Below are positions 15,540 to 30,749 of a stretch of 64,000 nucleotides of DNA, piece after piece. The DNA is from a virus. A program made the position numbers and the translations under genes. The notes under the pieces are model-generated. The model searched no databases and was not told the DNA's origin. It saw only the letters and a list, made by a program, of their open reading frames with translations. Position 1 is the first letter of the stretch; each line of letters begins with the position of its first letter. The stretch lies in the IMG/VR virus record IMGVR_UViG_3300031251_000003, positions 94,107-158,106 of that record. One strand, 5' to 3'.

Positions 15540-15613
15540 GGGTGTGTAGCTAAGCGGTTCAAGGCAGGGGACTCTTAATCCCAAGATCACAGGTTCGAAT
15601 CCTGTCACACTCA
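15540..15613 (+). tRNA. tRNA-Lys(CTT)
   Basis: Cloverleaf; CT-CTT-AA loop. Confidence 0.9.
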
Positions 15614-15955
15614 TCTAAGCACGGTGGATAGGAACTATCCGCAGGAGCGATACGAGGATACAAGACCGATCAGGGGCCACTGTGAGGTCTTCTCTACCTC
15701 TGGCAGGGTCGCGGTGGGTACTAACTCATCTAGTGTATATGCCGGTCTTAGCCCGAATGCAGATGTTTCAGCGTATACATCTAGTAGGGCTTTACTTTGT
15801 AACACCCCTCTCAAGTACACGGAGGAAGGATACGAACGGTACGCAGCCAAAAGGGTCTGCCATATTGAGAACCGAGTAACAATGCTCAATACTTACCTGA
15901 TTTAATCAGGTATTTTACCGTCATCCGTCTGGTCGTACCGGGATGACGTTAGAAA

Positions 15956-16041
15956 CTCCAAGTGGTGGAATTAGGTATACACGTCAGGTTGAGAGCCTGA
16001 TGGCCATCGCGGTCTTGCAGGTTCAAATCCTGTCTTGGAGA
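15956..16041 (+). tRNA. tRNA-Leu(GAG)
   Basis: tcagg-TT-GAG-AG-cctga; long variable arm. Confidence 0.9.
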
Positions 16042-16063
16042 TCTCTTACAGGAGGTAAGAAAT

Positions 16064-16192
16064 ATGAATCCAATCTTTTGGCTTCTCTTGATTCTCTTGA
16101 TTGTCATCCTTTTGGGTGGAGCAGTATTCAGCCATCTAATCTGGGTATTGATCATTGTAGTTGTCATCCTTTTCTTCCTCTTCGGAAGGTAA
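16064..16192 (+). CDS. 42-aa hydrophobic membrane peptide (below the ORF-track cutoff)
   Basis: AGGAGG RBS; MNPIFWLLLILLIVILLGGAVFSHLIWVLIIVVVILFFLFGR. Confidence 0.7.
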   Translation: MNPIFWLLLILLIVILLGGAVFSHLIWVLIIVVVILFFLFGR

Positions 16193-16240
16193 GTCATGGC
16201 CGTTCCCTATTCTTATGCGGTCTGGGGTAACGGCCACCAT

Positions 16241-16313
16241 GGTTCTCTAGCTCCAACGGTAGAGCGGCTGTTTGAAGCACAGCGCGTTGGCGGTTCGAAT
16301 CCGTCGGGAACCA
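16241..16313 (+). tRNA. tRNA-Phe(GAA)
   Basis: gctgt-TT-GAA-GC-acagc. Confidence 0.9.
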
Positions 16314-16485
16314 CTGTAGTCGAAGATCCAAGAGCCTCGCTCCACTAAAGTTGGCTGTCTTATAATACAGCACCGGAAGAGAAACTCAAGGGGAGACGAA
16401 ATTACGGAGACAAATAGATTAAGCTCCGTAAGATTTATGTTCTATCCTGATGCGTGAATGTTGATCACTAACAAAAGGAGAGAAC

Positions 16486-16686
16486 ATGAAGACAGCAGTA
16501 GGTACTGAAGATCTAACAGGCGCAGTAGTGGTTGATGTTGGCTACAATGATGTGACTCTTGAGAAGGATGGAGTCAGGTTTACTCTTGAACTTGAGTATG
16601 AAGCCGACTACAACAGTTTCTGCGAAGGTAGTTGCTCTTGTTGTGGTAGTTCTGGCTCATCGTACTTCCGGGCCTATAAGGAATAA
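16486..16686 (+). CDS. Small Cys-rich hypothetical protein
   Basis: AAGGAG RBS; CEGSCSCC. Confidence 0.6.
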   Translation: MKTAVGTEDLTGAVVVDVGYNDVTLEKDGVRFTLELEYEADYNSFCEGSCSCCGSSGSSYFRAYKE

Positions 16687-16736
16687 AGAATCGTCTGTCA
16701 CGCCGGATCCTGACGTAAAACTTAGTCCGGCCACAT

Positions 16737-16809
16737 GGCTCTATAGACTAGTTGGTTAGGTCGCTACCCTCTCAAGGTAGAAGTCGGAGTTCGAGTCTCC
16801 GTAGAGCTA
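16737..16809 (+). tRNA. tRNA-Glu(CTC)
   Basis: ctacc-CT-CTC-AA-ggtag. Confidence 0.9.
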
Positions 16810-16812
16810 CTA

Positions 16813-16892
16813 TGATCACGCAGCCACAGGGCAGGGCGCGGCGACCCGACACTTTCTCGGGGAACATGGAGGTTCGAATCCTCTCGGGATCA
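16813..16892 (+). ncRNA. Aberrant tRNA-like element
   Basis: Acceptor-like ends and intact T arm; cccga-cactttc-tcggg loop lacks U33; abnormal D region. Confidence 0.55.
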
Positions 16893-17124
16893 CTGTGGGA
16901 TAGAAAGGGCAACAAAGCGATATAACTTGACGCATCAGGGAGAGTTAGTCCCCTACTATCCCCCTATACTTTAAGAACGTGTGTGTGACGCTGTGACGCA
17001 GCAGAGGCACACTTTCGGGCGGGGGCGTCACCCCACGGTACCGGCGCGGTTTGGGACAACCGTTGTAAGACGACCGGAGGCGGCTTAGCGGCTGCTGAGA
17101 GGGTTCTCAAATGTTCTTATACTA

Positions 17125-17195
17125 TGGCGTATCGTTCAACGGCAGGACGGGTGGCTGTTAACCATCTAATTCAGGTTCGAATCCTGGTATGCCAG
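17125..17195 (+). tRNA. tRNA-Asn(GTT)
   Basis: ggtgg-CT-GTT-AA-ccatc. Confidence 0.9.
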
Positions 17196-17266
17196 CTTTA
17201 AATTCGTAGGGCACTACTCGCTGGTCGGACTAGTTTGCTGGCGAGCAACCCTACGGCGCGTTTCAT

Positions 17267-17337
17267 TCCCCGGTCGTCTAACGGTAGGGCAGATGGCTGT
17301 TAACCATCGTATGAGGGTTCGATTCCTTCCTGGGGAG
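17267..17337 (+). tRNA. tRNA-Asn(GTT)
   Basis: gatgg-CT-GTT-AA-ccatc. Confidence 0.9.
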
Positions 17338-17501
17338 CTTCGCAGTACATTGTTCGTCGTCCGGGAGCATCGCGAGGCATAACGGGTAGCTCAGGGTTAA
17401 ATTCCCTGATAGGGCGGCTAGCCCTAGACTGAACGTATTGATCCTTACTTGTTAAAGCGGGTTTGGGGAATGTGGCAATGTATTGCGCCGGTTTTAATCG
17501 T

Positions 17502-17542
17502 CGCGGATTAGAGAAAAGGTCATCTCGTGAGTCTCATAAACT
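17502..17542 (+). pseudogene. Orphan 5' half of tRNA-Met(CAT)
   Basis: cgcggat acceptor strand, D arm and gagtctcataaact; no T arm follows. Confidence 0.7.
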
Positions 17543-17573
17543 TTTCATGAGTTTACGAACACTAATAGTAGAG

Positions 17574-17942
17574 ATGCCATACAAAGATCCCGAAAAACAG
17601 AAAGAAGCACAGGCTAGATTAAGTGCTGCTTATTATCAAAAGAATAAGAAAAAGATGAAAGTTCGTGCAAAGCAGTATACATACGAACATCGAGAACGTC
17701 TTAAGCAGTTTTTGATAGAGATAAAGTCTGCTCCATGTATGGACTGTGGAAATTCGTTTCCATCATGTGTAATGGACTTTGATCACCGTGAGGGTGAAGA
17801 GAAAAACGGTTGTGTGTCTGTAATGGTGAACCGCGCACTAAGCTTAGATAGAATTAAACAAGAAGTATCTAAGTGCGACCTAGTATGTGCGAACTGTCAT
17901 CGGATTCGAACCTCCACGCGGAAACAAGCCCTGGTGGGCTAG
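17574..17942 (+). CDS. HNH homing endonuclease
   Basis: CMDC...DFDHR...KCDLVCANCHRIR. Confidence 0.85.
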   Translation: MPYKDPEKQKEAQARLSAAYYQKNKKKMKVRAKQYTYEHRERLKQFLIEIKSAPCMDCGNSFPSCVMDFDHREGEEKNGCVSVMVNRALSLDRIKQEVSKCDLVCANCHRIRTSTRKQALVG

Positions 17943-17990
17943 GGAGTCTCATAAACTCTCTCATGGTCAGTTCGATTCTGACTTCCGCTA
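17917..17990 (+). tRNA. tRNA-Met(CAT), with an initiator-like 1:72 mismatch
   Basis: ggagt-CT-CAT-AA-actct; 5' half overlaps the 3' end of the HNH gene. Confidence 0.8.
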
Positions 17991-18149
17991 TTTCAAAATG
18001 CAACTAGGCCGACATAGTTGCGCCATATGGTGAAATGATCGGCATACAATTCTGTCTAACCTAGATAGGAGCGCAAATAATCATGAAGTAAGTTATAACC
18101 TTTGCTCGTATTTGAAGGTTAAATGATTATTCCGCATATACGTGAGACG

Positions 18150-18245
18150 AATGCCGCAGAAGCCGGAAACGTCTAGCAGGGTCAAGTCCGCGATAATCAG
18201 CTTGATGCATTCCCTGTGAATACAGCGAAAGCCGCCGCCGAGGTT
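18150..18245 (+). ncRNA. GAAACGUCU/AGCGAAAGC RNA module, copy 3
   Basis: gaagccggaaacgtct...agcgaaagc. Confidence 0.65.
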
Positions 18246-18388
18246 GAGTCTGGATTACAGTGTATGTGATTATATGATATGATTTTAAGTTTGATTCATC
18301 TTGACTGTGGAGCCGAAAGCTGAGAAGCAGATCAAGAAACTAATGTAGATACATCGAGGGGTCGCGCATCTCTAACACGCGAATATTT

Positions 18389-18478
18389 GGATAGGTACTC
18401 AAGAGGCTTAAGAGGATGGTTTGCTAAACCATTAGAGGATGTCAAAGTCCTGCCAGAGTTCGAATCTCTGTCTATCCG
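18389..18478 (+). tRNA. tRNA-Ser(GCT)
   Basis: Long variable arm; TT-GCT-AA loop. Confidence 0.9.
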
Positions 18479-18549
18479 TGTAAGACGATCCGAAGACGAT
18501 GGGAACGTACGCGCATATCATGCGTGGTGACAGTCTATTCGAGGATCAG

Positions 18550-18622
18550 TGAATTGTAGCTCAACGGTTAGAGCGTTCCCTTCATATGGGAAAGGTAGTC
18601 GGTTCGACTCCGATCAATTCCA
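18550..18622 (+). tRNA. tRNA with CAT anticodon (Met)
   Basis: ttccc-TT-CAT-AT-gggaa. Confidence 0.8.
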
Positions 18623-18710
18623 TTAAAGAGGATGGTAGCCGATAGGTTGGCGTGGGTGTGCTGATTCGGTGAGATGGTTCGTCCTGCCTCATAAGACCAC
18701 GCGAGAATTT

Positions 18711-18797
18711 GGATATATGGCTGAGTGGATTAAAGCGCTAGTCTTGAAAACTAGTATGTGTGAAAGCGCATCCGGGGTTCGAATCCCTGTGTATCCG
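18711..18797 (+). tRNA. tRNA-Ser(TGA)
   Basis: ctagt-CT-TGA-AA-actag; long variable arm. Confidence 0.9.
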
Positions 18798-18977
18798 TAG
18801 GATGGTTTACGACGTGGTAGTGTACGTTTGGCGCTTAAGTGCGTTCTGGCCGAGAATCAAAGGCATCCATCCTTGGGGTTAGAGACTTAGGATTCTGAGG
18901 CGAGCAACCTGAAATGGTAAGGAACGAATAACCGTTGCTGCGGCCTGTCGTTCAAACTGGATCAAGTCTCTTCTTTT

Positions 18978-19064
18978 GGAAACGTGGCCGAGAGGATTAA
19001 GGCGCAGACCTGGAAAGTCTGTTGGTATTTACGTGCTACGCAGGTTCGAATCCTGTCGTTTCCG
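18978..19064 (+). tRNA. tRNA-Ser(GGA)
   Basis: cagac-CT-GGA-AA-gtctg. Confidence 0.9.
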
Positions 19065-19067
19065 CTC

Positions 19068-19205
19068 ATGGGGTGAAAATGGAGAGTCGTCTAGTTCGAT
19101 TCTAGACTTGTGGATGGTTCCACGGCGGTTCAATTCCGCGTTATAAACTTGTGGCAGCAAATAGGGTAGCCCCCGCTCAGAGGGTTCAATTCCCTTACAC
19201 TCCAT
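19068..19205 (+). ncRNA. Structured RNA with three T-loop hairpins
   Basis: Closing helix atggggtg/cactccat; three TTCRATT-loop hairpins. Confidence 0.6.
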
Positions 19206-19250
19206 TTATTTACAATTAGGATTACTAATTACTCTTGTATAATAGATAGA

Positions 19251-19679
19251 ATGATTAATTCTAGAGTTTTAAATGAGAAAATAAAGGCCCAAAAGGAGAT
19301 TACGAATCAACGATTCGCTGATTCAGAAAAAGCTGTTGCAGCAGCTTTAGCTGCTCAAGAAAAGGCAACAGCGGCAGCATTTGCGGCTGCAAAGGAAGCT
19401 GTCATCAAGGCAGAAATTTCCCAACAGCGTGTCAATGAAAGTCAGAATGAATTCCGTGGCCAGCTTAAAGATCAAAATGCCGCTACGGAACGTAATATGA
19501 TGCCTCGTGCTGAAACAGAGTTATTGGTTAGAGAAATTCGAAGTAGTATTCAGGATCTTCAGAAGAGCCGAGATACCATCACAGGCAAGTCAATGGGGAT
19601 AGCTAACTTGACTAGCTCTGTCTATGCGTTTATCTTTGCTATTGCAGCTATTGCAGCTATCGCAGGCCACTTTCTCTAA
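19251..19679 (+). CDS. Coiled-coil protein with C-terminal TM anchor
   Basis: AV.AALAAQEKA...AV.KAE; hydrophobic C-terminus. Confidence 0.7.
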   Translation: MINSRVLNEKIKAQKEITNQRFADSEKAVAAALAAQEKATAAAFAAAKEAVIKAEISQQRVNESQNEFRGQLKDQNAATERNMMPRAETELLVREIRSSIQDLQKSRDTITGKSMGIANLTSSVYAFIFAIAAIAAIAGHFL

Positions 19680-19698
19680 TATGCTATAATGTGATCCC

Positions 19699-19851
19699 AT
19701 GAGGATCATTGGTGAACATTTCACTAGGCAGGGTAAGCCTAAGGTTACTTATGCGACCTTCCAGGGCGCTCAGAAGAAAGCACTGAAGCTTCATATGCGG
19801 GCTTATCAGTGTGGGTTTTGTGGCAAGTATTATCTAACGCATAAAGTTTAG
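19699..19851 (+). CDS. 50-aa phage zinc-finger protein
   Basis: TGnTATAAT 8 nt upstream; RAYQCGFCGKYYLT motif. Confidence 0.7.
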   Translation: MRIIGEHFTRQGKPKVTYATFQGAQKKALKLHMRAYQCGFCGKYYLTHKV

Positions 19852-19933
19852 GAAGATATCCGAACGGTTAGGAAGCGCCCTCGAAAAGCGCCGGTGTTCA
19901 TAGCACTTGGGAGTTCGAATCTCCTGTCTTCCG
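19851..19933 (+). tRNA. tRNA-Ser(CGA)
   Basis: CT-CGA-AA loop; long variable arm. Confidence 0.85.
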
Positions 19934-20148
19934 CTTATCGATAATCCGGGGATAGACCTAGGATTGTGACTGGATTAGGATCGCAACCTGATTACGGCAA
20001 TCTCATGATGGTCAGCTAGGGCCAGCACCTAGAATCGATTTCTAAAAGAACGACTCACGAAAGACTAGTGTAGGAAGGTAAGGGACGCAGGGTTGGGATG
20101 ACGATCTCGACGCGCCTATTTCTGTATCTTTCGTGGGAAGGTTTAACA

Positions 20149-20222
20149 CACGCCTTAGCCAATGGATAGGCAGATCGGCTCCAACCCGATCCAAAGGTGG
20201 GTTCGATTCCTACAAGGCGTGC
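20149..20222 (+). tRNA. tRNA-Trp(CCA)
   Basis: atcgg-CT-CCA-AC-ccgat. Confidence 0.85.
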
Positions 20223-20243
20223 TCAGTCTTATAAGGAGGATGT

Positions 20244-20576
20244 ATGCGAGTTCTATTACTGGTCTTGGTATTCTTGGTAATGGCAACGTCCGCGTTAGCA
20301 TCTCCACCCCGCCCTGCGAGGGCTTTCGATACCTTATGGTGTTGGCAATTGAAAGTTCAGTACACGCTCAAGCTGGGATGGCAAGCTAAGCATTGGAAAT
20401 GCAACCTAGGTAGTTGGGATCCGTATGCTAAAGAATGGACATATCGGGTCTGGGTTGATGAAGTAAAAGGTAGTCGTGTTTATCATGACTATGTGATCCT
20501 CTTTACAGACTTTGCTACTAAGAATTGGACACGAGTTCCCCATGGATATCCTGAAACAGGTGGTCTAAAGGGTTAA
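20244..20576 (+). CDS. Putative secreted protein
   Basis: AAGGAGG RBS; signal peptide ending ALA. Confidence 0.7.
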   Translation: MRVLLLVLVFLVMATSALASPPRPARAFDTLWCWQLKVQYTLKLGWQAKHWKCNLGSWDPYAKEWTYRVWVDEVKGSRVYHDYVILFTDFATKNWTRVPHGYPETGGLKG

Positions 20577-20916
20577 AGTGTGTACATCTCTTTCACTGGA
20601 TTCCAATGGTGTTCATGATTACAGTGACTGTGGAGCGAGAGCTTAGCACCAAGCGCACTCCTATTACTTGCACGGTTGGCTGATCGGTGTAAGCGCCACT
20701 CTTATAAGGTGGTTTAAGCTAGGTTCGACTGATATCCTGAAACAGGTGGTCTAAAGGGTTAAAGTGTGTACATCTCTTTCACTGGATTCCAATGGTGTTC
20801 ATGATTACAGTGACTGTGGAGCGAGAGCTTAGCACCAAGCGCACTCCTATTACTTGCACGGTTGGCTGATCGGTGTAAGCGCCACTCTTATAAGGTGGTT
20901 TAAGCTAGGTTCGACT
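20545..20916 (+). repeat. Perfect 186-bp tandem duplication
   Basis: 20545-20730 is identical to 20731-20916; the first copy ends within the tRNA T loop. Confidence 0.9.
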
Positions 20917-20929
20917 CCTAGACCGTGTA
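20856..20929 (+). tRNA. tRNA-Ile(TAT)
   Basis: ccact-CT-TAT-AA-ggtgg; nearly the same anticodon arm as tRNA-Ile(GAT). Confidence 0.85.
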
Positions 20930-20948
20930 CTTGTGCTATAATGTAGTC

Positions 20949-21443
20949 GTGAACGAAGAACGACAACAAGCTTGGAACCATTACTTCCAGACCGGCGATA
21001 GAGAACCAATCATCAAAGCCTACTGGAAGTCGATCAGTTACATTGCTCATGCTCGTTATCCGGCCTACGAAGAAGATATGTTCCAGGTCGGGCTAATGGG
21101 TTTGCTCAAGGCTATCAGTCGTATCGATGTCAATCGAGTCAAGTCTATTGATGCTTGGGTATGGTTGAATGTTCGTGGAGAAATGTTTAACGTAAAGCTT
21201 GCTAAGCCAACTCTTCCGATTGTTATCGAGTCAGAGAGGTTTGCTATCGAGGAAGACAAAGATCCAAAGATCTACATGCAACAGGCATTCGAGGTTCTAA
21301 ACGAGCGCGATAGGTATATTCTTGATAGTATTTACTATAAGAATAAGACACGTCAGGCTCTAGGCAAGGAGTTGGGCATTACCGGCATGAGAGTCGGCCA
21401 ACTAGAACAAAGAGCATTAAAGCAGTTGAGAGAAGTATTGTAA
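20949..21443 (+). CDS. RNA polymerase sigma factor (sigma70 family, regions 2 and 4)
   Basis: EDMFQVGLMGLLKAISR; LNERDRYIL...LGKELGITGMRVGQLEQRALKQLR. Confidence 0.9.
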   Translation: MNEERQQAWNHYFQTGDREPIIKAYWKSISYIAHARYPAYEEDMFQVGLMGLLKAISRIDVNRVKSIDAWVWLNVRGEMFNVKLAKPTLPIVIESERFAIEEDKDPKIYMQQAFEVLNERDRYILDSIYYKNKTRQALGKELGITGMRVGQLEQRALKQLREVL

Positions 21444-21516
21444 GCACAGGTACTCAAGCGGTTAAGAGGCCACTCTGATAAGGTGGTATGCGAAAGTTCG
21501 AATCTTTCTCTGTGCA
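21444..21516 (+). tRNA. tRNA-Ile(GAT)
   Basis: ccact-CT-GAT-AA-ggtgg. Confidence 0.9.
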
Positions 21517-21540
21517 TAGGATCGGATTATTGATCCAAAG

Positions 21541-21742
21541 TAAGGCGACCAATATCGTGGCGCTAGCGAAAATCACAAAAACGACTTTACAGATATTTTC
21601 ATTTGTAGGTTCGAATCCTACTCCCCGCTCTTCACGCGGGGATGGCGAAATTGGCAAACGCGCTGGGCGATCAGCCCGGTTGTGAAATATCAATCAAGCG
21701 AAAGTTGTGTTAGCTAGAATAAGGCGCGTGATGCTAGCCTTT
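21541..21742 (+). ncRNA. Circularly permuted tRNA-like RNA (YrlA/Y-RNA-like)
   Basis: Order is T arm, acceptor stem closed by a loop (tccccgc-tcttcac-gcgggga), then D arm, all on a long closing stem. Confidence 0.75.
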
Positions 21743-21769
21743 TATTTAAGGTTATATGCCTCTTATAGT

Positions 21770-21913
21770 CTAGTGAGGATCAAAGAAACGTCTCATGGTA
21801 TGGGCTTCCAAACCTATACTACGTGTAGCTCAAATGGGAGAGCCGCCGCCTGAAAAGCGGTGGGTTGGGGGTTCGAGTCCCTCCACGAAAGTAGCGAAAG
21901 CTTTGGGAGTTAG
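21770..21913 (+). ncRNA. GAAACGUCU/AGCGAAAGC RNA module, copy 4, enclosing a tRNA-Phe
   Basis: gaggat-caaa-gaaacgtct...agcgaaagc-tttg-ggag. Confidence 0.75.
21819..21894 (+). tRNA. tRNA-Phe(GAA) with bulged acceptor stem
   Basis: ccgc-CT-GAA-AA-gcgg; acceptor ctacgtg/cac-gaaa-gtag. Confidence 0.7.
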
Positions 21914-21945
21914 TCGAGTGAAAAGTGGTTAATTAGCCTTATTCC

Positions 21946-22268
21946 GGGAGCGTCCCGGTTTCGATGTGGAATTACGGTTCTGACTTCAATCCGTGGAAAC
22001 ATGATGGCCACGTAAAAAACATGTAACGTACTAAATGCAAACGCTAATATGAGCGTCCCGGACTTCATCCCTGATTGGGTAATGGATGAGTCCTTAGTTG
22101 CTGCTTAACTAGGAAACCTAATAAGCAGAGACTCTCAGGAAAGACTGAGTGGCGGAGGGGCGACTGCCCTCCATGCTTGACAAGTACGACCGTGATGGGT
22201 ATAATCTATGATTGTAAGCGTTAGTTCAACGATTACCGCAGACGCGAGTTCGACTCTCGCCGCTTCCA
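21946..22268 (+). ncRNA. ssrA: tmRNA
   Basis: GGGAGCG/CGCTTCCA acceptor with G3:U; T arm; resume context taaat-gca; tag ANANMSVPDFIPDWVMDESLVAA*. Confidence 0.93.
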
Positions 22269-22303
22269 TATGTACTATATTTCACTCCCTCCAAAGGAAG
22301 TTA

Positions 22304-22498
22304 ATGCACGATAGATCAGACTACCATATCCACAAGGATGAGCAAGGGAAACTACACAGGTGTTACCACAACTGCCGAAATATCTTACCCAACTGGCAGT
22401 TCTGGGTTGGTATGACGATGGGATTCCCTCTCGAACATCTGATTTGGCAACATCTTTGGCCCTTCTATTTAGTTAGTAATCTTTTGGGCCTTTCGTGA
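22304..22498 (+). CDS. His-rich hypothetical membrane protein
   Basis: AAGGAAG RBS before MHDRSDY. Confidence 0.55.
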   Translation: MHDRSDYHIHKDEQGKLHRCYHNCRNILPNWQFWVGMTMGFPLEHLIWQHLWPFYLVSNLLGLS

Positions 22499-22566
22499 CC
22501 TTGGCCGAGTGGTTTAGGTATGGCTCTGCAAAAGCTATTACATCAGTTCGAATCTGATAGGTCACT
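22495..22566 (+). tRNA. tRNA-Cys(GCA)
   Basis: CT-GCA-AA loop; U73. Confidence 0.9.
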
Positions 22567-22666
22567 TGAAGTACAATGTTTCATACAGGATCTACCTCTG
22601 GCTCATAGCTAGGCGGTTTAGATTTGAATGGTTGGAAAGGCTGGTTCGTAAACCTATAAACCAGAG

Positions 22667-22879
22667 ATGGAGAAGGTAATGGCACAGTTGCAGAAGACAT
22701 TCATTGCACGATTCTACGATAGCTCACGACATCAATTTGCTACCAACAAGGTAGTCGCGGCAAACTTCGTGATGGCAGGAGAAGTTGCCCATGAGTGGGC
22801 AGAAGATCACTACCATGGACGTGCAACGAAGATCAAACTAGAATCCTCCAAAGGTGGAGAAGTTGTGTGTTCCGACTAA
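22667..22879 (+). CDS. Hypothetical protein
   Basis: 70-aa ORF upstream of rpsL. Confidence 0.55.
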   Translation: MEKVMAQLQKTFIARFYDSSRHQFATNKVVAANFVMAGEVAHEWAEDHYHGRATKIKLESSKGGEVVCSD

Positions 22880-22891
22880 AAGGAAGGGTGT

Positions 22892-23293
22892 ATGGCGACA
22901 ATTAATCAGCTTGTAAGAAAGGGCCGAACGGCCAAGAGGAAGAAGGATAAGTCCCGTCATTTAAAGGGTAACCCTCAGGTTGCCGGTACTGTCTTGCGCG
23001 TCATGGTTCTCAACCCTTGTAAGCCGAATTCTGCCGAACGTCATTCGTGCAGGGTTAGACTCTCCAATGGCGGTGAGGTAACCTGTTACGTCCCTGGTCG
23101 TGGTATGAATATCCAGGAGCACAGCAGAGTCCTTGTTCGCGGCGGAATTGCTCCTGATCTCCGTGGAGTCAAGTACAAGGTTGTCCGTGGTAATCGTGAC
23201 TGTGCCGGGGTCAGTGATGAGATGGGTGGAAAGAAGAATTCCACACCAGTTCCTCGTAAGAATTCTCGTTCACTCTACGGAGTGAAGAAGTAG
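22892..23293 (+). CDS. rpsL: 30S ribosomal protein S12 (uS12), divergent
   Basis: [38 protein letters not shown]...DL.GV.Y, RS.YGVK. Confidence 0.96.
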
Positions 23294-23405
23294 TGTTACA
23301 TCACCTTATCGCTCGTTCCGATGCCTGTTGACGCAGGCTTAGGGAGCAAAACTGAAGCGTCAACTTCGTCTCAATATCGGCACAAGCCGAAGCGATAAGG
23401 ATCTT

Positions 23406-23489
23406 GCCCGCCTGGTGGAATGGTATACACGGTTGGCTTAAACCCAACTGCCTATAACGGGCTTGCGAGTTCGAATCTCGCGGTGGGTA
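23406..23489 (+). tRNA. tRNA-Leu(TAA)
   Basis: gttgg-CT-TAA-AC-ccaac. Confidence 0.9.
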
Positions 23490-23511
23490 CTTGGTAAGGA
23501 TGGTAGTTCAT

Positions 23512-23595
23512 ACCGGTGTGCTGGAATTAGGTATACAGGGGCGTCTCAAAAACGTCTGCTCAAAAGGCATGAGAGTTCGATTCTCTCCATCGGTA
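23512..23595 (+). tRNA. tRNA-Leu(CAA)
   Basis: ggcgt-CT-CAA-AA-acgtc. Confidence 0.9.
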
Positions 23596-23894
23596 CTGTC
23601 GGTATCACGCTGGCGCTCTAAGGAGTCGAGGCCGAATATCGGGATGCATCTCGTGAGAGAAGGGGATCTTGACGCCCGGAGTTTTGTCTTTATGTCTGAA
23701 ACTCCTTTATGTTCAATAAACTAACTCATAACGGTACAGCACCTGAGTCAGTGGATGGAGTCGTCTAGTTCTCTAACAGTCAAATTGGCGTCCTTTCTAG
23801 ATAAGGTAATCCTCTAAGATTGAGATTGACTAGCGGCGAACTTGAGGTACGGAAGTACCTTAGCCGACGACATTTATGATAAACTGTAGTATTA

Positions 23895-23967
23895 CCCTCC
23901 ATAGCTTCAACGGTAAAGCACGGGCCTTTTAAGCCATGAGTTCTGGGTTCGAATCCTAGTGGGGGGA
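23895..23967 (+). tRNA. tRNA-Lys(TTT)
   Basis: CT-TTT-AA loop. Confidence 0.85.
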
Positions 23968-24044
23968 CTTGAGATCTAGGGTGTGGGTTATACGTCCACG
24001 TTTCCTTATAGGCGATGCGCTCGGTAGTGTCGTGATCTCTATTA

Positions 24045-24117
24045 GCCCTCTTAATTCAGTGGACAGAATGTTAGCCTTCGAAGCTAAACGTCGGGAGTTC
24101 GAATCTCTCAGAGGGTA
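24045..24117 (+). tRNA. tRNA-Arg(TCG)
   Basis: ttagc-CT-TCG-AA-gctaa. Confidence 0.9.
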
Positions 24118-24131
24118 TCTAGAAAGAAGAC

Positions 24132-24160
24132 TTGACAACCAGACAACAATGAGGTATACT
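24132..24160 (+). promoter_or_regulatory. Sigma70 promoter (likely leaderless transcript)
   Basis: TTGACA-N17-TATACT, 6 nt before GTG. Confidence 0.85.
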
Positions 24161-24166
24161 TAAGCC

Positions 24167-24385
24167 GTGGCTAAGAAACACAAGCCGAAGGAAAAGACTG
24201 AAACGAAGTTTTCGAAGTATCTTCCCGGCGAGAGTACATGGACGGGACGACGCAATAAGACGAGGCAGGATCTAATCCCAATGGGTCAACGTGATCGCGT
24301 TGAAACAGCACAGAAGATCAGATCCTTCTCGATGCAGCATAAGCCATCTTGCACTAAAGATTGGCTGAAGTTGCGAGTACATTGA
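24167..24385 (+). CDS. Small basic protein
   Basis: Lys/Arg-rich, 72 aa, directly after a promoter. Confidence 0.6.
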   Translation: MAKKHKPKEKTETKFSKYLPGESTWTGRRNKTRQDLIPMGQRDRVETAQKIRSFSMQHKPSCTKDWLKLRVH

Positions 24386-24547
24386 TAACTTAGGTGGTGG
24401 TACCGGGAACCCCGATCCGGTGACGCGGAAGCGTATGGTGTAAGGGTTATGCACGCCACATGTACTAAGCCTTGGGATGCGATTCTCAAGGTACCCTTTC
24501 TAGCAGGGGATGTGCCTGGGCACCGCTCCAGAGCCAGCTAGATGTAA

Positions 24548-24621
24548 CTGGATGTAGGAAAGCTTGGTAATCCGTCTGCTTTGGGAGCAGAAGAGCGTGA
24601 GTTCGAATCTCACCGTCCAGA
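24548..24621 (+). tRNA. tRNA-Pro(TGG)
   Basis: tctgc-TT-TGG-GA-gcaga. Confidence 0.9.
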
Positions 24622-24623
24622 CT

Positions 24624-24834
24624 GAAGAGTTAGGAGGTTGGCCTAAAGGCAGCCACCCTTTAAAGAGTAGACTTACGTGAGCCGACCACGCTGAGCGAAA
24701 GCCTATTTGAGAGTCATGATCGCGCAAAGGTGACAATGATCCCGCGCCCGGAATGGCAACATGACGAAGACCAAGGAAACGACTTGGAAGAATAAACGGG
24801 TTAGTCTTTTGGCGTAACAGCACACTATCTCTTT
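24624..24834 (+). ncRNA. 23S rRNA GTPase-associated-centre (H43/H44) mimic with ~143-nt insertion
   Basis: aggaggttggcctaaaggcagccaccctttaaagagt ... gcgtaacagcacact matches 23S nt ~1054-1105. Confidence 0.85.
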
Positions 24835-24843
24835 TAGAATTGA

Positions 24844-24918
24844 CTGGATATAGCTCAGCCTGGTTAGAGTACGCCCTTGGGGAGGGTGAGGCCGCAAGTT
24901 CGAATCTTGCTATCCAGA
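24844..24918 (+). tRNA. tRNA-Pro(GGG)
   Basis: cgccc-TT-GGG-GA-gggtg. Confidence 0.9.
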
Positions 24919-24921
24919 TAA

Positions 24922-24992
24922 CAGGATGTTGTATAGTGGTAATATACTTGCTTCGGGAGCATGAGTCAGAGGTTCGAGTCCTCTCATCCTGA
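24922..24992 (+). tRNA. tRNA-Pro(CGG)
   Basis: TT-CGG-GA loop. Confidence 0.85.
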
Positions 24993-25048
24993 TATGTACT
25001 AGCTTTCTTATGGTGATCTCGCCCTACTAATGGGTAGGTGATAAATAA

Positions 25049-25216
25049 ATGAGACAACATATAGAAGGTGGATTACTTTCATTCTTAGGATTATGTGCTG
25101 CTGCTCTCTTCTTTGGTCTTCTCGTATTTGGAGGATCCATTAGCGATTGGCCATTAGAGGTAGCAGGCTTCTTTGCTCTAGCTATTGCGTTCGTTCTGGA
25201 ACGCTTAGGGTTGTAA
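25049..25216 (+). CDS. 55-aa two-TM membrane peptide
   Basis: MRQHIEGGLLSFLGLCAAALFFGLLVF... Confidence 0.6.
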   Translation: MRQHIEGGLLSFLGLCAAALFFGLLVFGGSISDWPLEVAGFFALAIAFVLERLGL

Positions 25217-25451
25217 GACTCCGCTGGAATGCGGCGCATAGGGAGGTTCTTCGAGCCGTTGATCTATGTGATGGTGGAAACCGTGCCCGTTGAGCCGGGT
25301 AAAGGTACGACTAGCCATCGTATCGAAAGCGTAGGGCAGCGCGGTTGTAGCTGGTGGTGAGGGCGCAGCTATGGTATGGCTAAACGCCGAATCGTTCGAA
25401 GCGACAAGGCTTACGGGGTTGGTAATTCTCACGACTTGCCGATCCCGCCAA

Positions 25452-25523
25452 TGCGGTGTAGTCTAATGGTAGTGACTTCCGGCTCTGAACCGGACAGTGT
25501 TGGTTCGAATCCAGCCTCCGCAG
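25452..25523 (+). tRNA. tRNA-Gln(CTG)
   Basis: tccgg-CT-CTG-AA-ccgga. Confidence 0.9.
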
Positions 25524-25813
25524 CTAACTCTAACGAGTAACAAGTGATTACAGCCGCTGATTGCCACGAGCGGTAAAGGATGGTCTTTTATGCCGGACGC
25601 TAGAATATGGCAGGTATAAAACTAAGTGTGTGGGTACCCGTAGCAATCACAGCCGCCGTTTTGTAATCCAGGATGTGGATTGTCGAGGTATGGTATAGAC
25701 ACCACTTCTAGAAATCCACCATACATGCGCTACCTTGGAAAGGTGTAACGGTTCATAACCTGCCTTTCCTCCAATCCCCACTTAGGCTGAAATATACCTA
25801 GGTGGGGAACCAA

Positions 25814-25894
25814 GCATATGTTGAGCAAAGGCTAGCTCCGCTGTCTGTAAAACAGCCGTCTCCGACTATGTAGGTTCGAATCCTACCATATGCA
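25814..25894 (+). tRNA. tRNA-Tyr(GTA)
   Basis: gctgt-CT-GTA-AA-acagc; long variable arm. Confidence 0.9.
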
Positions 25895-25898
25895 CTGA

Positions 25899-25970
25899 TG
25901 GGAAATCGGTTAATGGTTAAACCAAGAGCCTTTGAAGCTCTGACTTTGGGTTCGAGTCCCAATTTCCCTA
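25899..25970 (+). tRNA. tRNA-Gln(TTG)
   Basis: agagc-CT-TTG-AA-gctct. Confidence 0.9.
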
Positions 25971-26007
25971 TAGGTCAAGCTGGTGGGCCTGAAGCACTAG
26001 CATTTAC

Positions 26008-26081
26008 GGAAGCGTAGCTCAGTTGGTTAGAGCACCGGCCTGTCACGTCGGTAGTCGCGGGTTCGAGTCCCGTCGTTTCCG
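26008..26081 (+). tRNA. tRNA-Asp(GTC)
   Basis: ccggc-CT-GTC-AC-gtcgg. Confidence 0.9.
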
Positions 26082-26490
26082 CTCTTTGGACGATGACCTG
26101 TGGAAGGATTTATGCCAAACTTCCTAAAGGGTAAAAAGCTAGCGAGTAAGGCGAAGCTGGGGCACCACAAAATGCGTCAGTGGATGAAAGCTAGCGAATC
26201 AAGCTGCTGTAGGCATAACGGTAGTGTAATGAGCGAGTCTAACTCAAGTATTTTCGCTCCACCGTCCAAGGTTTTAAGTTGACCAATCATAATTTGTATG
26301 ATATACTAAGTCATGGTTACTAAAACGGACATAAAAACTCTTGAATTCGATGTAGATGGGAAGACAATCGAGCTTCAAGTTAAATGTGAGTTGGTTAGTA
26401 AAACTTGGAAACTTACGATTAATTGTAAGGATCCCGGTCGTGTTGAGTTTGAAACCATCATGAGTAAGATGGGTGTTATAAGATAAATAA

Positions 26491-26566
26491 CGGGGTGTGG
26501 TGTAGTCCGGTCTAACACGCTTGCCTGTCACGCAAGAGAACGAGGGTTCAAATCCCTTCATCCTGA
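26491..26566 (+). tRNA. tRNA-Asp(GTC)
   Basis: cttgc-CT-GTC-AC-gcaag. Confidence 0.9.
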
Positions 26567-26636
26567 TTGAAGATCGTCTAAAGTAGGACGCCTGGTTTAA
26601 CGGGAGATTCTAGAGGTTAACGTCTCTGGCTTCAAA
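26567..26636 (+). pseudogene. Degenerate tRNA-like element
   Basis: ttgaag/cttcaa ends and D arm present; decayed anticodon and T loops. Confidence 0.4.
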
Positions 26637-26642
26637 ATACTT

Positions 26643-26717
26643 GCCTCGTTGGTCTAGCGGTCTAGGATACCGGGTTTTCACCCCGCGTGAACAAGGGTTC
26701 GAATCCCTTACGAGGTA
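26643..26717 (+). tRNA. tRNA-Glu(TTC)
   Basis: TT-TTC-AC loop. Confidence 0.85.
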
Positions 26718-27101
26718 CCTTAATAAAAATTAGACACCAGGGTTTCAGAGCAAAGCGGTAGCTCCGAGCGCTCTTATGAGATCTTGGGTGTTGTGACGGA
26801 AAAGTGCCTATCTTGCTTCCGCAAAGCGGTGAGCTAGGTATTGAACGTATAAGCGGCGAAAGCTCTGGGCAACCGGAGCCGGTAGCAGCCGAAGTAAAGG
26901 AATCGAAACCAGCGGCTTAGCGGCTGAGGGACTAGGTTCTGGGCGGGGGTTGTACCTCGTACAGTGGTGGCTCGACAGGGCAGCGGAAGTAGAAGAGAAA
27001 CCATATGACAAGGTAGCTTGCCTCTTCTTGCGGGATACCAAGACCCGCCAACACAGTCTAAATCTTGGGGATGTTTGGGTAAAACTGAGCATCCCCACCA
27101 A

Positions 27102-27177
27102 CCTTCAGTAGCTCAACGGTAGAGCGGTACGCTGTATGGAAGCGTTCGGGTTGCGAGTTCAATTCTCGTCTGAGGGT
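27102..27177 (+). tRNA. Atypical tRNA with extended anticodon stem (ATG in loop)
   Basis: Canonical acceptor, D and T arms; gtacgct-gtatgga-agcgttc. Confidence 0.55.
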
Positions 27178-27242
27178 CTTCTCGCTCGACACTCCCCTCC
27201 TAGGCCAATGATCTAGCCCGTGGGAAAGTGCGGCGAGTTCTA

Positions 27243-27315
27243 GCCAGCCTCGTATAACGGCATATTACACCGCACTTGTAATGCGGGTATTTCGGTTCAA
27301 TTCCGAAGGTTGGCT
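27243..27315 (+). tRNA. tRNA-Thr(TGT)
   Basis: ccgca-CT-TGT-AA-tgcgg. Confidence 0.9.
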
Positions 27316-27420
27316 CTCGTGTGTGGAAATGAAACTATGTGACGAGCGCGTTCCGGCATAGAAGTAGTGGCCTTTCTGGGTTCGAGTCCCAGCACCGATT
27401 TATCAAAACAAGGAGGCACT

Positions 27421-27774
27421 TTGCTGAAATGGCTAAAGTTGCCGATACTAACTGTACTAATCCTAAGTAGTTTGGGAAATCTCAGGACAAACGGCGCTAA
27501 AGCTGTCTCAGTTCGTAGTCTCACTGTTTTAGAGACTGCCTATTGTCTTAGGGGAACTATGGCCAACGGCCACTATGTTCACCCTGGGGCAATAGCGGTT
27601 GATCCAAGAGTTATTCCTATGGGATCTCGTATCTTTGTCCCCGGCTATGGTTGGGGAACAGCAGAGGATACGGGTGGTGCAATTATCGGCTATCATATCG
27701 ATGTATGGATGAGCGATTGCTCACAAGCTATGAGATCTACCCGATGGAATGTACGGATCAAAATTTCACGTTGA
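27421..27774 (+). CDS. Secreted 3D-domain (MltA-like) cell-wall protein
   Basis: TAY, IAVDPRVIPMGS, AEDTGGAI.G..IDVW; AAGGAGG RBS before TTG. Confidence 0.9.
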   Translation: MLKWLKLPILTVLILSSLGNLRTNGAKAVSVRSLTVLETAYCLRGTMANGHYVHPGAIAVDPRVIPMGSRIFVPGYGWGTAEDTGGAIIGYHIDVWMSDCSQAMRSTRWNVRIKISR

Positions 27775-27818
27775 GTGGGAAGGTAACAAATATAGGTGGC
27801 ATTTGGGGCCAAATGGCT

Positions 27819-27911
27819 ATGCCGAAATTACTAGAAGAGTTAGCTAAATGTGATGTTGTTTGTGCTAACTGCCATCTTCGTAGACATCATTCCGCGTTGT
27901 TCGTAGACTAA
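27819..27911 (+). pseudogene. HNH endonuclease C-terminal remnant
   Basis: EELAKCDVVCANCHLRRH, paralogous to the HNH at 17574; stop codon lies inside tRNA-His. Confidence 0.75.
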
Positions 27912-27970
27912 TTGGTTAAGTCCCTACCCTGTGAAGGTAGCCTATACGGGTTCGAATCCCGCCGAACAAC
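27896..27970 (+). tRNA. tRNA-His(GTG)
   Basis: G-1:C73; ctacc-CT-GTG-AA-ggtag. Confidence 0.9.
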
Positions 27971-28037
27971 TCAAGGGGATCTCCTTGATATGCCGTGGTT
28001 CGTCGGTTACGAATTCTTGGAGCAAGATCCCCTCCAT

Positions 28038-28151
28038 GCAGCAGTCGCTTAAGTGGGAAAGCACCTACTGATAAAGAAGTCTCCATGGTTATAGACCGGT
28101 CAAACGGTGGAGATTTGTAGGAGATCATTGGTTCGAATCCAGTCTGTTGTT
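28038..28151 (+). ncRNA. tRNA scaffold with a 48-nt structured insert in place of the anticodon loop
   Basis: Acceptor gcagcag/ctgttgt, D arm, cctac/gtagg stem and T arm are all intact. Confidence 0.75.
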
Positions 28152-28155
28152 CTTT

Positions 28156-28230
28156 GAGAGATTAGCATAATTGGACTAATGTTCCAGGTTGTGATCCTGG
28201 CTAATTTCGGTTCGAATCCGAAATCTCTCT
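28156..28230 (+). tRNA. tRNA-His(GTG)
   Basis: ccagg-TT-GTG-AT-cctgg. Confidence 0.8.
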
Positions 28231-28323
28231 TGCCTTGATAACCCCAGTCGCTTCGGCGGCTCCGAGATAGGCACGGAATGAAACAGACCATTGGGAGCAG
28301 ATGGCTTTAGCCGATCTGTTTTC

Positions 28324-28396
28324 GCCTGAGTAGTGATAACGGTCAGCACACATCCTTGGTAAGGATGGAGTTTGGGTTCGATTCCCAGCTTGGGCT
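28324..28396 (+). tRNA. tRNA-Thr(GGT)
   Basis: catcc-TT-GGT-AA-ggatg. Confidence 0.9.
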
Positions 28397-28397
28397 T

Positions 28398-28529
28398 ATG
28401 AGTAACTTCAAACGCAAGAAATCAAGACGTTCGGTAAAGTGTACCATGTGTACACCATTTAGATGGTTAGGAAATACCAAAGAACGGCGACCCTTTAAAG
28501 ACCGTCGCCAACTTCAGAAGGAGGAATAG
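28398..28529 (+). CDS. 43-aa basic CxxC peptide
   Basis: MSNFKRKKSRRSVKCTMCTPFRWLGN... Confidence 0.55.
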   Translation: MSNFKRKKSRRSVKCTMCTPFRWLGNTKERRPFKDRRQLQKEE

Positions 28530-28531
28530 CA

Positions 28532-29260
28532 TTGGCAGCAGTTGATCAGGCAATCTATGTTATCATCGATGGCAGTGGCTCGATGAGTAGCGTGAAGCAT
28601 GATGTAGTCAAGGGCATTAACGATTTCATTACGGAACAGCAGGACGACATCAAGGGCACACAGGATGTTGTGTTGTTTTCTCTGACATCCTTTGACACGA
28701 ATGTCCAGGAAATCTACGTGAGAGAGAATCTAGAGCTAGTCAATCCTGTCTCTTTGAAGGATACTTACTTGGGCGGTGGTACATCTCTTCTAGATGCTAT
28801 TGGCCGTACACTGACTAAGGCTGAGGATGAACAGGCTGATCGTAACATCGTCGTGATCTATACCGATGGTGGCGAGAATTCAAGTCATGAGTTCACTAAG
28901 ACTCAGGTTGGTGATTTGATCGACAAGCTGACTGGTACAGGAGATTGGCAGATCATCTATCTCGGTGCTGAGTTTGCCGACTTCGCAGAAGATCGTCAGG
29001 GCTTTGGTGCTATTGCTGGTGCCGCAGCGGGTGGTACCTTTACTGGTATGAACACGTCGAAGAATGATGTTGGTGCCACGTTCTCTAACCTGTCCCAGAC
29101 ATCCATCTATTACAGAGGGATGCACACCAATTCTGCTAAGAATCTTGTTGCTCGCGGTGGAGTCGTGGCCGCAGCAGCGGAGGATATTGGCCTTACCTGG
29201 AACGAGGATGACACAACGGTTATTCCGGCCGATGTAGTGGAACCTAAGAAGAAAGCCTAG
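28532..29260 (+). CDS. von Willebrand factor A domain protein
   Basis: MIDAS DGSGSM, GGTSLLDAI, TDGGENSS. Confidence 0.9.
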   Translation: MAAVDQAIYVIIDGSGSMSSVKHDVVKGINDFITEQQDDIKGTQDVVLFSLTSFDTNVQEIYVRENLELVNPVSLKDTYLGGGTSLLDAIGRTLTKAEDEQADRNIVVIYTDGGENSSHEFTKTQVGDLIDKLTGTGDWQIIYLGAEFADFAEDRQGFGAIAGAAAGGTFTGMNTSKNDVGATFSNLSQTSIYYRGMHTNSAKNLVARGGVVAAAAEDIGLTWNEDDTTVIPADVVEPKKKA

Positions 29261-29301
29261 GGGAGAGGACGCCATCTGCTCTCTAAAAAATGATGGCACT
29301 A

Positions 29302-29372
29302 GCCAGTTTAGTATAGTGGGAATACTCGCCTTTCGTAAGGGCGAAACTAGGGTTCGATTCCCTAATCTGGCT
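29302..29372 (+). tRNA. tRNA-Thr(CGT)
   Basis: cgcct-TT-CGT-AA-gggcg. Confidence 0.9.
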
Positions 29373-29408
29373 CTGCTTATCAGGCGCGTCCCGGTAGCTC
29401 CGGGTTAA

Positions 29409-29480
29409 GAGCGTGTAGTTCAGCGGGAGAACGTCTGGGTGACAACCAGAAGATCGTAGGTTCGATTCCTACCATGCTCA
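29409..29480 (+). tRNA. tRNA-Val(GAC)
   Basis: tctgg-GT-GAC-AA-ccaga. Confidence 0.9.
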
Positions 29481-29548
29481 TACGGCCCTTGTGGGGTCCA
29501 AAACAATACAAATTCTATTTAGATCTGAAAGGGATAAGGTGAATAGAT

Positions 29549-29737
29549 ATGAAGACTCGTTGGATGATTATTCCGACCGTGGTGGCCCTTTTAGGTATGA
29601 TTGTTGTGTTCGTAGTCGGGTATCTTACTTACGGTATTTGGGCCGGTTTCTTTGTTTCTATTCTTTTCGGAGTTATTAGCTTGATTCTTCTCATCTGGGC
29701 TGCTATAATGGATGGAGAAGATAATACGCATGTATAG
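29549..29737 (+). CDS. Small two-TM membrane protein
   Basis: Hydrophobic 62-aa ORF with RBS. Confidence 0.6.
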   Translation: MKTRWMIIPTVVALLGMIVVFVVGYLTYGIWAGFFVSILFGVISLILLIWAAIMDGEDNTHV

Positions 29738-29800
29738 CAAAGTTGGTATTGCGCTTCCTTGCCATGGAAGAGGCCACGAGTTCGAGTCTCGTTACATGCT
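29728..29800 (+). tRNA. tRNA-Gly(GCC)
   Basis: cttcc-TT-GCC-AT-ggaag. Confidence 0.9.
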
Positions 29801-29804
29801 TTAC

Positions 29805-29876
29805 GCACCAGTAATGTAGTGGTTAACATGACAGTCTTCCAAACTGTATACCAGAGTTCGAATCTCTGTTGGTGCA
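29805..29876 (+). tRNA. tRNA-Gly(TCC)
   Basis: acagt-CT-TCC-AA-actgt. Confidence 0.9.
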
Positions 29877-29880
29877 TCGT

Positions 29881-29953
29881 TGCTCCGTAGATTAGAGGAC
29901 AAATCACTTCCCTGCGAAGGAAGAAATCACGAGTTCGAATCTCGTCGGGGCTA
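29881..29953 (+). tRNA. tRNA-Arg(GCG)
   Basis: cttcc-CT-GCG-AA-ggaag. Confidence 0.85.
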
Positions 29954-29990
29954 TAGTTCAGCTAACACCGATTTATGATATAATAGGTAT

Positions 29991-30317
29991 CTCAGTAGAT
30001 GGACATACGCTGCATCGTGTATCTATCGGTGTAGAGGAAGTTCGGGACATCCTTCTAGGGGAGCCAAGGAACCTAGAGAAAAACGTGCGGCAGTAGTGGG
30101 AGTCAGGTGCATTGGGTAAACCTTCGGGCATAATGCGGTGCTATCACCCTCCTGACGCCTTACCACGAGAATCGGCGGGATGCGATCACAAGCAGATACA
30201 TCAGCTACGATGATATCGGGTAGTGAGCAGCCCTTCGGGGCCAGGGATTGAACAGACCCTGAGATAGATGTATGTCGCCCTTGACAGGGTACAAAATTCC
30301 GGCTATAATCTACTGAA
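29991..30317 (+). ncRNA. rnpB: RNase P RNA (catalytic subunit)
   Basis: P1 tcagtagat/atctactga, P2 gacatac/gtatgtc, CR-I GAGGAAGTTCGGGAC, P5 catcc/ggatg, AGATAGATG, CR-V ACAAAATTCCGGCTAT. Confidence 0.9.
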
Positions 30318-30326
30318 GCAATGTAC

Positions 30327-30398
30327 GGCGATAAGCCTGCGGTGGGCAACTTCTCTCATAAGGAAGTCTGAGGTAAGGTTCGATTCCTACTATCGCTA
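30327..30398 (+). tRNA. tRNA with CAT anticodon (Met or Ile2)
   Basis: cttct-CT-CAT-AA-ggaag. Confidence 0.8.
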
Positions 30399-30400
30399 CT

Positions 30401-30747: not shown

Positions 30748-30749
30748 CT

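Follow-up and report, generated by a model that had tools for sequence, protein, structure and literature searches.

A phage genome rich in tRNA genes carries a full-length gene for ribosomal protein uS12 that belongs to a phage lineage, and the encoded protein is changed at the residues that govern translational accuracy and the response to streptomycin while its decoding loop is kept. uS12 is a classical genetic handle on translational accuracy, and, to our knowledge, no other protein extends as far as the codon-anticodon helix. Phage-encoded ribosomal proteins are themselves known; what is new is a conserved phage lineage of a decoding-centre protein that has changes at accuracy residues and a dedicated partner. 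We give about an even chance to the reading that this uS12 would be incorporated into ribosomes as an accuracy variant that shifts tRNA selection.

A uS12 gene in the tRNA island of a complete phage genome

The source record, IMGVR_UViG_3300031251_000003, comprises 158,106 bp and is 100% complete according to CheckV, and the window analysed here (64,000 nt) is its last 64 kb. Encoded in the window are a baseplate wedge protein, virion proteins, helicases including DnaB, a ribonucleotide reductase, a DnaE-like polymerase, the large terminase and the portal. The record is a genuine complete phage, not cellular contamination, and uS12 is a phage gene, as an earlier note made on this DNA had taken it to be; the completeness estimate and the portal, terminase, baseplate and polymerase genes bear this out. 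Gordonia phage Pupper, Rhodococcus phage E3 and Bxz1-like Mycobacterium myoviruses have portals with 39% identity to that of the window, and the DnaE-like polymerase shares 29-34% identity with the polymerases of Rhodococcus phage E3, an Eggerthella phage and others, relatives that make an actinobacterial host plausible.

The S12 cassette is housed in a tRNA island, directly beside the phage tmRNA gene (Table 1), and a promoter-like site inside the tmRNA gene lies upstream of a tRNA-Cys gene, a small ORF and S12 in turn. Rfam at its gathering thresholds reported tRNAs and the tmRNA only between positions 11500 and 32000 of the window, and neither RNase P RNA nor a mimic of the 23S GTPase centre was recovered there as a known family; genes for SmpB, bS21, RimO/MiaB-type proteins and EF-Tu-family proteins were not found in the phage genome. 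Outside the window, a 618-aa ORF of the CCA-adding type has a PolyA_pol / CCA-adding nucleotidyltransferase domain (90 bits; G000:C1:38869-39249).

Further features of these islands were observed in passing. Unusual anticodons occur in the window in a tRNA-His(ATG), beside two tRNA-His(GTG), and in a tRNA-Ile(TAT), at positions 27102-27178 and 20856-20930, respectively; tRNA-His(ATG) is also present in the related contig L003. Protein genes within the island encode a 172-aa sigma-70-like factor with regions 2 and 4 (20925-21443, between two tRNA-Ile genes), a 3D-domain protein that may be a cell-wall hydrolase (27367-27774) and a VWA-domain protein (28532-29260), and the related contig L002 has a 172-aa ORF of the same length and place as the sigma-like factor (4415-4933). 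The syntenic island of L002 also contains an ARAGORN-called tRNA with a four-base anticodon (taag; 10389-10464), which may be frameshift-suppressor-like. A 71-nt tRNA with anticodon TCA, labelled 'SeC' by ARAGORN, is found in the S12-bearing tRNA island of L006 (3701-3771) and L007 (219-289), and since a genuine tRNA-Sec would be much longer than 71 nt, it is a candidate UGA suppressor.

Table 1. Features of the S12 cassette and its surroundings (window positions unless a contig is named)
Feature	Position	Strand	Basis or remark
tRNA island, 46 tRNA genes and tmRNA, housing the S12 cassette	12170..30748	all +	syntenic in related phage contigs
Phage tmRNA gene	21946..22271	+	adjoins the S12 cassette here, in L002 and in L006/L007
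Promoter-like site, TTGACA-17-TATAAT, 12/12, within 3' part of tmRNA gene	22177..22205	+	consensus match only
tRNA-Cys(GCA), between tmRNA and small ORF	22495..22566	+	
Conserved 70-aa ORF (66 aa from conserved Met), directly 5' of S12	22667..22879	+	homologues in related loci, AF2 model
Phage-type uS12 gene, 133 aa	22892..23293	+	PF00164 / TIGR00981 profiles, alignment, structure model
tRNA-Leu(TAA), first tRNA 3' of S12	23406..23490	+	
Homologues of the small ORF	L002 5814-6014; L003 4424-4624; L006 6850-7047; L103 1030-1251		

The uS12 ORF is intact, with an ATG start and 133 codons, and a Shine-Dalgarno sequence (AAGGAAGGG) stands 5-13 nt 5' of the ATG. Its product matched NCBIfam TIGR00981 (rpsL_bact) with 141.8 bits (cut-off 112.95) over residues 1-133 and Pfam PF00164 with 88.7 bits (cut-off 22.3), thus exceeding the curated family cut-offs across its full length, and the ORF is a full-length phage-lineage uS12, in agreement with the intact uS12 that had been described from the letters alone. 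The AF2 model (pLDDT 74) has an OB core with five core strands, and all of the 50 Foldseek matches listed against the PDB were S12 chains (E from 2e-11 upward, TM about 0.6); the fold agrees with that of bacterial uS12, an OB-fold core from which a tail extends at either terminus. The net charge of +22 is the same as that of cellular S12, and a C-terminal insert occupies approximately residues 107-121. Neither S7 nor EF-G is among the neighbours of the gene in the window, and the str-operon context (rpsL-rpsG-fusA) is absent.

Substitutions at accuracy and streptomycin residues

Phage uS12 was aligned with the 124-aa S12 chains of solved ribosomes, and since the alignment has no gaps over residues 1-113, gene position n corresponds to E. 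coli mature position n-1. Residues C43, E49, H51, I86, P88 and R91 of the gene are accordingly K42C, L48E, K50H, R85I, K87P and P90R in E. coli numbering, the altered loop reading GGIAPDLRG, and P45-N46-S47-A48 (gene numbering), QEH, GG and D89 (=D88) are kept, so that the decoding loop PNSA, the QEH motif and D88 of bacterial uS12 are all present. The earlier note had named all six substitutions and the retained PNSA and D88 correctly, and it had overlooked two further changes, R30A (PQVAG) and V86A.

In 89 cellular S12 sequences these columns are nearly invariant, with K at position 42 in 87, L at 48 in 88, K at 50 in all 89, R at 85 in 87, K or R at 87 in 88, P at 90 in all 89 and R at 30 in 87, which places the substitutions of the window copy far beyond chance variation. 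In place of the conserved K42, R85, K/R87 and P90, which face h18/h27/h44 of the 16S rRNA, the window copy has C, I, P and R, and conserved rRNA-facing basic residues are removed by R30A, K42C and R85I. Each codon change amounts to one to three base substitutions, which argues against single sequencing errors; for three of the four residues specific to the window (R30A, K42C, R85I, P90R), two or more bases of the codon had to change, and the window-specific changes are grouped in two decoding-face loops rather than scattered. A separate observation was made in the cellular Actinomycetota/Thermoleophilia rpsL genes L054 and L085, which read PRKPNSA and GGSTKDLPGY (K42R, R85S, V86T), indicating that free-living bacteria tolerate some changes at such 'invariant' positions.

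Restrictive and streptomycin-related rpsL alleles are known at K42, K87, P90 and G91, and the window copy is substituted at the first three of these by K42C, K87P and P90R. The changed positions are the classical streptomycin and accuracy positions, as had been proposed. P90R by itself confers streptomycin dependence on K. pneumoniae (Tsai et al. 2014, PMC4182516) and, as Carr 2005 is cited in PMC3884664, on T. thermophilus. P90G, P90A and P90C confer plain streptomycin resistance (PMC4182516, PMC3884664), the small-side-chain class (P90G, P90A) being streptomycin-resistant in Thermus (PMC3884664), and substitutions at K42 are known to act as internal suppressors of the P90 alleles that cause dependence (Demirci et al. 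2013, PMC3884664). K87P, K42C and R85I were not found among the rpsL alleles in this literature (PMC3884664, PMC4182516). The phage changes thus share their positions with the rpsL alleles, P90R being a known dependence allele, and unlike those drug-selected single mutations they arose in nature, occur several together and have become fixed in a lineage of viruses.

A phage-type uS12 clade and its relatives

A search of 5.8 billion proteins returned about 17 metagenomic relatives at 59-73% identity (E 1e-51 to 1e-35), followed by the bulk of ordinary bacterial S12 at 56-59% identity, the first ordinary match examined (P0024) lying in a cellular rpsL-rpsG-fusA-S10 operon. K87P (GGRxPDLPG), the loss of L48 (to E, K or N) and the C-terminal insert are common to all 17 clade members, and most of them also have K50H or K50T, V33T/C34V, T39V/T41N and H72M/L74I. 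Invariant throughout the clade are P-N-S, E76-H77, G84-G85, D88 (gene D89) and, in the N-terminal tail, T3/Q6/R9/K10/R12; one member (P0020) has G at position 47 instead of A, and one (P0010) has S at position 75 instead of Q. Within the clade, K42C, R85I, P90R and R30A occur in the window copy only, and P0003, its closest relative at 73% identity, carries K42, R85, P90 and R30.

The clade loci placed in their genomic context were the window, L002 (a 72-kb IMG/VR contig), L003 (a 54-kb Logan contig), L006/L007, L008 and L103. S7 and EF-G are absent beside S12 in all six, and in five of them S12 is set in a syntenic tRNA island or preceded by the same small ORF, the exception being L008, which has no tRNA genes. 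The syntenic islands of L002, L003 and L006/L007 contain 35-42 tRNAs, with a tmRNA also present in L002 and L006/L007, and L003 and L007 continue into a ribonucleotide reductase gene, as the window does. Compared with bacterial uS12 (RpsL; TIGR00981, PF00164; the first gene of the str operon), phage uS12 has the same fold, length class, N-terminal tail, PNSA, QEH, GG-x-x-x-D loop and D88, but it stands alone in a tRNA island without rpsG or fusA, has a clade-specific C-terminal insert and is changed at V33/C34, T39/T41, L48, K50, H72/L74 and K87 in all or most of the clade, to which the window adds R30A, K42C, R85I and P90R.

A scan of IMG/VR yielded eight more stand-alone S12 genes on viral contigs (seven contigs measure 83-442 kb, the other is an 11-kb fragment, and five of the eight have terminase matches), all with C-terminal inserts except L092, and also four cellular str-operon contaminants. 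The loops of other viral S12 read GGSVPDLGG (L092), GGNRPDLGG (L095), GGAVPDLAG (P0022) and GGRVPDLPG (L096); P90G or P90A, both known resistance alleles, is found in other stand-alone viral S12 together with K87P and R85S/N/A. The L094 protein resembles that of the window in standing alone, in its C-terminal insert, in a small ORF that overlaps its start and in its terminase-bearing viral record, but its lineage keeps K42, R85, K87 and P90, lies outside a tRNA island and has a helical partner family.

No phage-type S12 was found by tblastn in 50,697 GenBank phage records; three of the 16 matches were examined (H2, H9 and H11), and these were rejected as phage S12 because each is a cellular S12-S7-EF-G operon on a record that is contaminated or unverified. 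A pattern scan of GTDB (one genome per species, 185,579 genomes) showed no clade member among the matches listed, the best cellular S12 among them not exceeding 57% identity and Actinomycetota accounting for many of the highest-ranking ones. Judged from these sequences, uS12 is not a recent host capture.

Selection and phylogeny

Across the six loci with DNA, pN of 0.21-0.32 stood against a saturated pS of 0.65-0.87, and dN/dS where dS was computable came to about 0.09-0.19, a range that is only rough because synonymous sites are saturated. This dN/dS comparison among phage homologues, which the earlier note had proposed, points to long-term purifying selection on phage uS12 in the viral lineage. 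The window copy keeps 48 of the 62 columns that are conserved to at least 97% in cellular S12, its 14 departures compare with 10-17 across the clade, just two of its departures from the clade 90% consensus are unique, and its terminal branch (0.37) is ordinary within the clade. Together with pN against the saturated pS, the departures within the clade range and the ordinary branch argue against decay, and the look of relaxed selection that would have spoken against a functional protein was not seen, divergence being no higher than in the relatives.

The S12 phylogeny was built on 112-124 columns and is poorly resolved. With all columns, a branch with 98% SH-aLRT support parted all 89 cellular sequences from 30 phage-type and insert-bearing ones; when the trait columns were taken out, the tRNA-island clade was still one side of a branch, with a support of only 67%. 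L092 and P0022 nested among Actinomycetota in the first tree, and a convergent origin of K87P is not claimed, since a single K87P clade with one origin was not rejected by the AU test (P = 0.60). A donor lineage of the clade is likewise not claimed, given that the closest cellular S12, many of them from Actinomycetota, are just 50-57% identical and given the poor resolution of the tree.

A small conserved ORF upstream of uS12

The small ORF directly 5' of S12 belongs to a family of 65-73 aa with 45-48% identity among loci, which is under purifying selection. In the window it ends 12 nt before the S12 start, and in L002, L003, L006 and L103 it overlaps or abuts that start. Its AF2 model is confident (pLDDT 84) and has a beta-beta-alpha-beta arrangement; Pfam gave no family for it, Foldseek gave nothing against the PDB at E <= 0.001, a word-based search returned the ORF itself only, and the Atlas gave sub-threshold leads only. 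A complex prediction of uS12 with the small upstream protein scored 0.27 and 0.22 (mark 0.32), which weighs neither way on binding. The 289-aa protein upstream of P0020 in L008 was considered as a homologue and proved to be unrelated. In the jumbo-phage lineage a small ORF also overlaps the S12 start (L091 5729-6022, L093 5766-6038, L094 5679-6035), and it belongs to a helical family that is unrelated to that of the window (hhalign probability 0.2). The small ORF is an obvious candidate for a loading factor of uS12.

Comparison with known virus-encoded ribosomal proteins

The viral ribosomal proteins described to date include bS21, bL12, bL9, bL31, bL33, bS6, uS9, uS15 and HPF (Mizuno et al. 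2019, PMC6375957) and, in huge phages, S1, S4, S21 and L7/L12 (Al-Shayeb et al. 2020, PMC7162821), and uS12 is absent from both lists. PF00164 was among the profiles with which Mizuno et al. searched, and S12 is not among their 14 viral ribosomal proteins (PMC6375957); a full-text search of the literature found no description of a phage uS12. The earlier statement that phage ribosomal proteins are not core proteins agrees with these lists as regards uS12 and was too strong in general, uS4, uS9 and uS15 having been reported. Phage uS12 is like the known viral ribosomal proteins in being fixed in a phage genome, in being under purifying selection and in its occurrence in a large phage rich in tRNAs and translation genes. 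Unlike them, it is a buried decoding-centre protein and not one of the dynamic, exchangeable proteins favoured by viruses, a set given as bS21, bL12, bL9, bL31 and bL33 with uS12 omitted (PMC6375957), and it has accuracy-residue substitutions and a dedicated small partner ORF.

Possible roles of phage uS12

As an accuracy variant, uS12 would be made during infection, co-translated with the small conserved partner protein, and would most likely take the place of host uS12 in 30S subunits, changing the tRNA-selection set-point at the decoding centre. By analogy with the rpsL alleles at K42, K87 and P90, the shift may be toward a restrictive (hyper-accurate), streptomycin-insensitive state. uS12 would then form one part of a translation take-over module together with a near-complete phage tRNA set, the tmRNA and the CCA-adding enzyme. 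Given the dependence caused by P90R and the suppressors known at K42, the window-specific K42C and P90R look like a compensated pair, in which K42C would compensate P90R atop the clade-wide K87P. Residues that matter at the A site only are strictly kept along with the N-terminal tail that anchors the protein in the 30S subunit, which favours a ribosome-incorporated variant. Because uS12 is not among the exchangeable proteins (PMC6375957), incorporation would need new 30S assembly, a loading factor or an as yet unknown exchange mechanism.

A bolder form of this proposal, which we regard as a long shot, is that uS12, its partner, the phage tRNAs and the tmRNA make up a semi-orthogonal decoding system. 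The partner would put uS12 on the 30S subunits of the host by loading or exchange, the altered decoding face (K42C, R85I and P90R here, on top of K87P throughout the clade) would raise the threshold for GTPase activation and thereby favour phage tRNAs and codon usage, and relatives with a UGA-reading or four-base-anticodon tRNA would use the same switch for recoding.

An extraribosomal role is also conceivable, though unlikely, in which uS12 would act on the long and highly structured transcript of the tRNA/tmRNA island, either as its RNA chaperone or as a cofactor of its processing, or would be a decoy that titrates a host factor. E. coli S12 reportedly helps splicing of a phage T4 group I intron in vitro, a precedent attributed to Coetzee, Herschlag and Belfort in 1994. 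Such a role would suit a protein that is not readily exchangeable on the ribosome, that lies within an RNA island in the window, L002, L003 and L006/L007, and that keeps its overall positive charge while losing several rRNA-facing basic residues. It fits poorly with the retention of P-N-S, QEH, D88 and the N-terminal tail over saturating divergence, for which a generic chaperone would have no need, and the link between S12 and the island is not universal, since P0020 (L008) and the other viral S12 (L091-L099) stand outside tRNA islands.

It is improbable that the variant acts as a dominant-negative agent of host shut-off, entering nascent host 30S subunits and crippling them or blocking 30S assembly. 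P90R-type proteins do hold up ternary complexes ahead of GTPase activation, in two bacteria P90R-class alleles fail to function unless streptomycin is present, and the basic contacts to rRNA lost through R30A, K42C and R85I could be read in the same sense; but the phage, too, depends on translation and maintains 46 tRNAs, P90 dependence is suppressed by K42 changes, and since most clade members keep K42, R85 and P90, poisoning cannot be the ancestral function. More improbable still is protection from aminoglycosides, by which a streptomycin-insensitive S12 would sustain phage translation in drug-exposed hosts, possibly Actinomycetota, the group infected by the nearest cultured relatives. K42, K87 and P90 are indeed classical resistance positions, yet where sensitive and resistant ribosomes are mixed, sensitivity to streptomycin is the dominant trait, the principle on which rpsL counter-selection rests (PMC4182516), and the host ribosomes present before infection would stay sensitive, so that the altered antibiotic sensitivity suggested earlier is a weak reading. 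Least probable of all is a passenger gene under relaxed selection, with the four window-specific changes as the start of decay: R30, K42, R85 and P90 are lost in this copy alone and are near-invariant elsewhere, but the intact ORF, its strong Shine-Dalgarno sequence, the conserved upstream partner, the ordinary number of departures and branch length, and the clustering of changes in two decoding-face loops, mostly by multiple base changes per codon, all tell against it.

Implications

Virus-encoded ribosomal proteins have hitherto been mostly peripheral and exchangeable, and a phage uS12 leads one to ask by what route a protein buried in the ribosome might be swapped during infection. The natural set of multiply substituted S12 proteins (K87P; K42C with P90R; R85S/N/A with P90G/A) could be used to test domain closure, streptomycin dependence and its suppression. 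If the ribosome-incorporated accuracy variant is real, phages would reprogramme the proofreading core of the ribosome, beyond initiation or the stalk.
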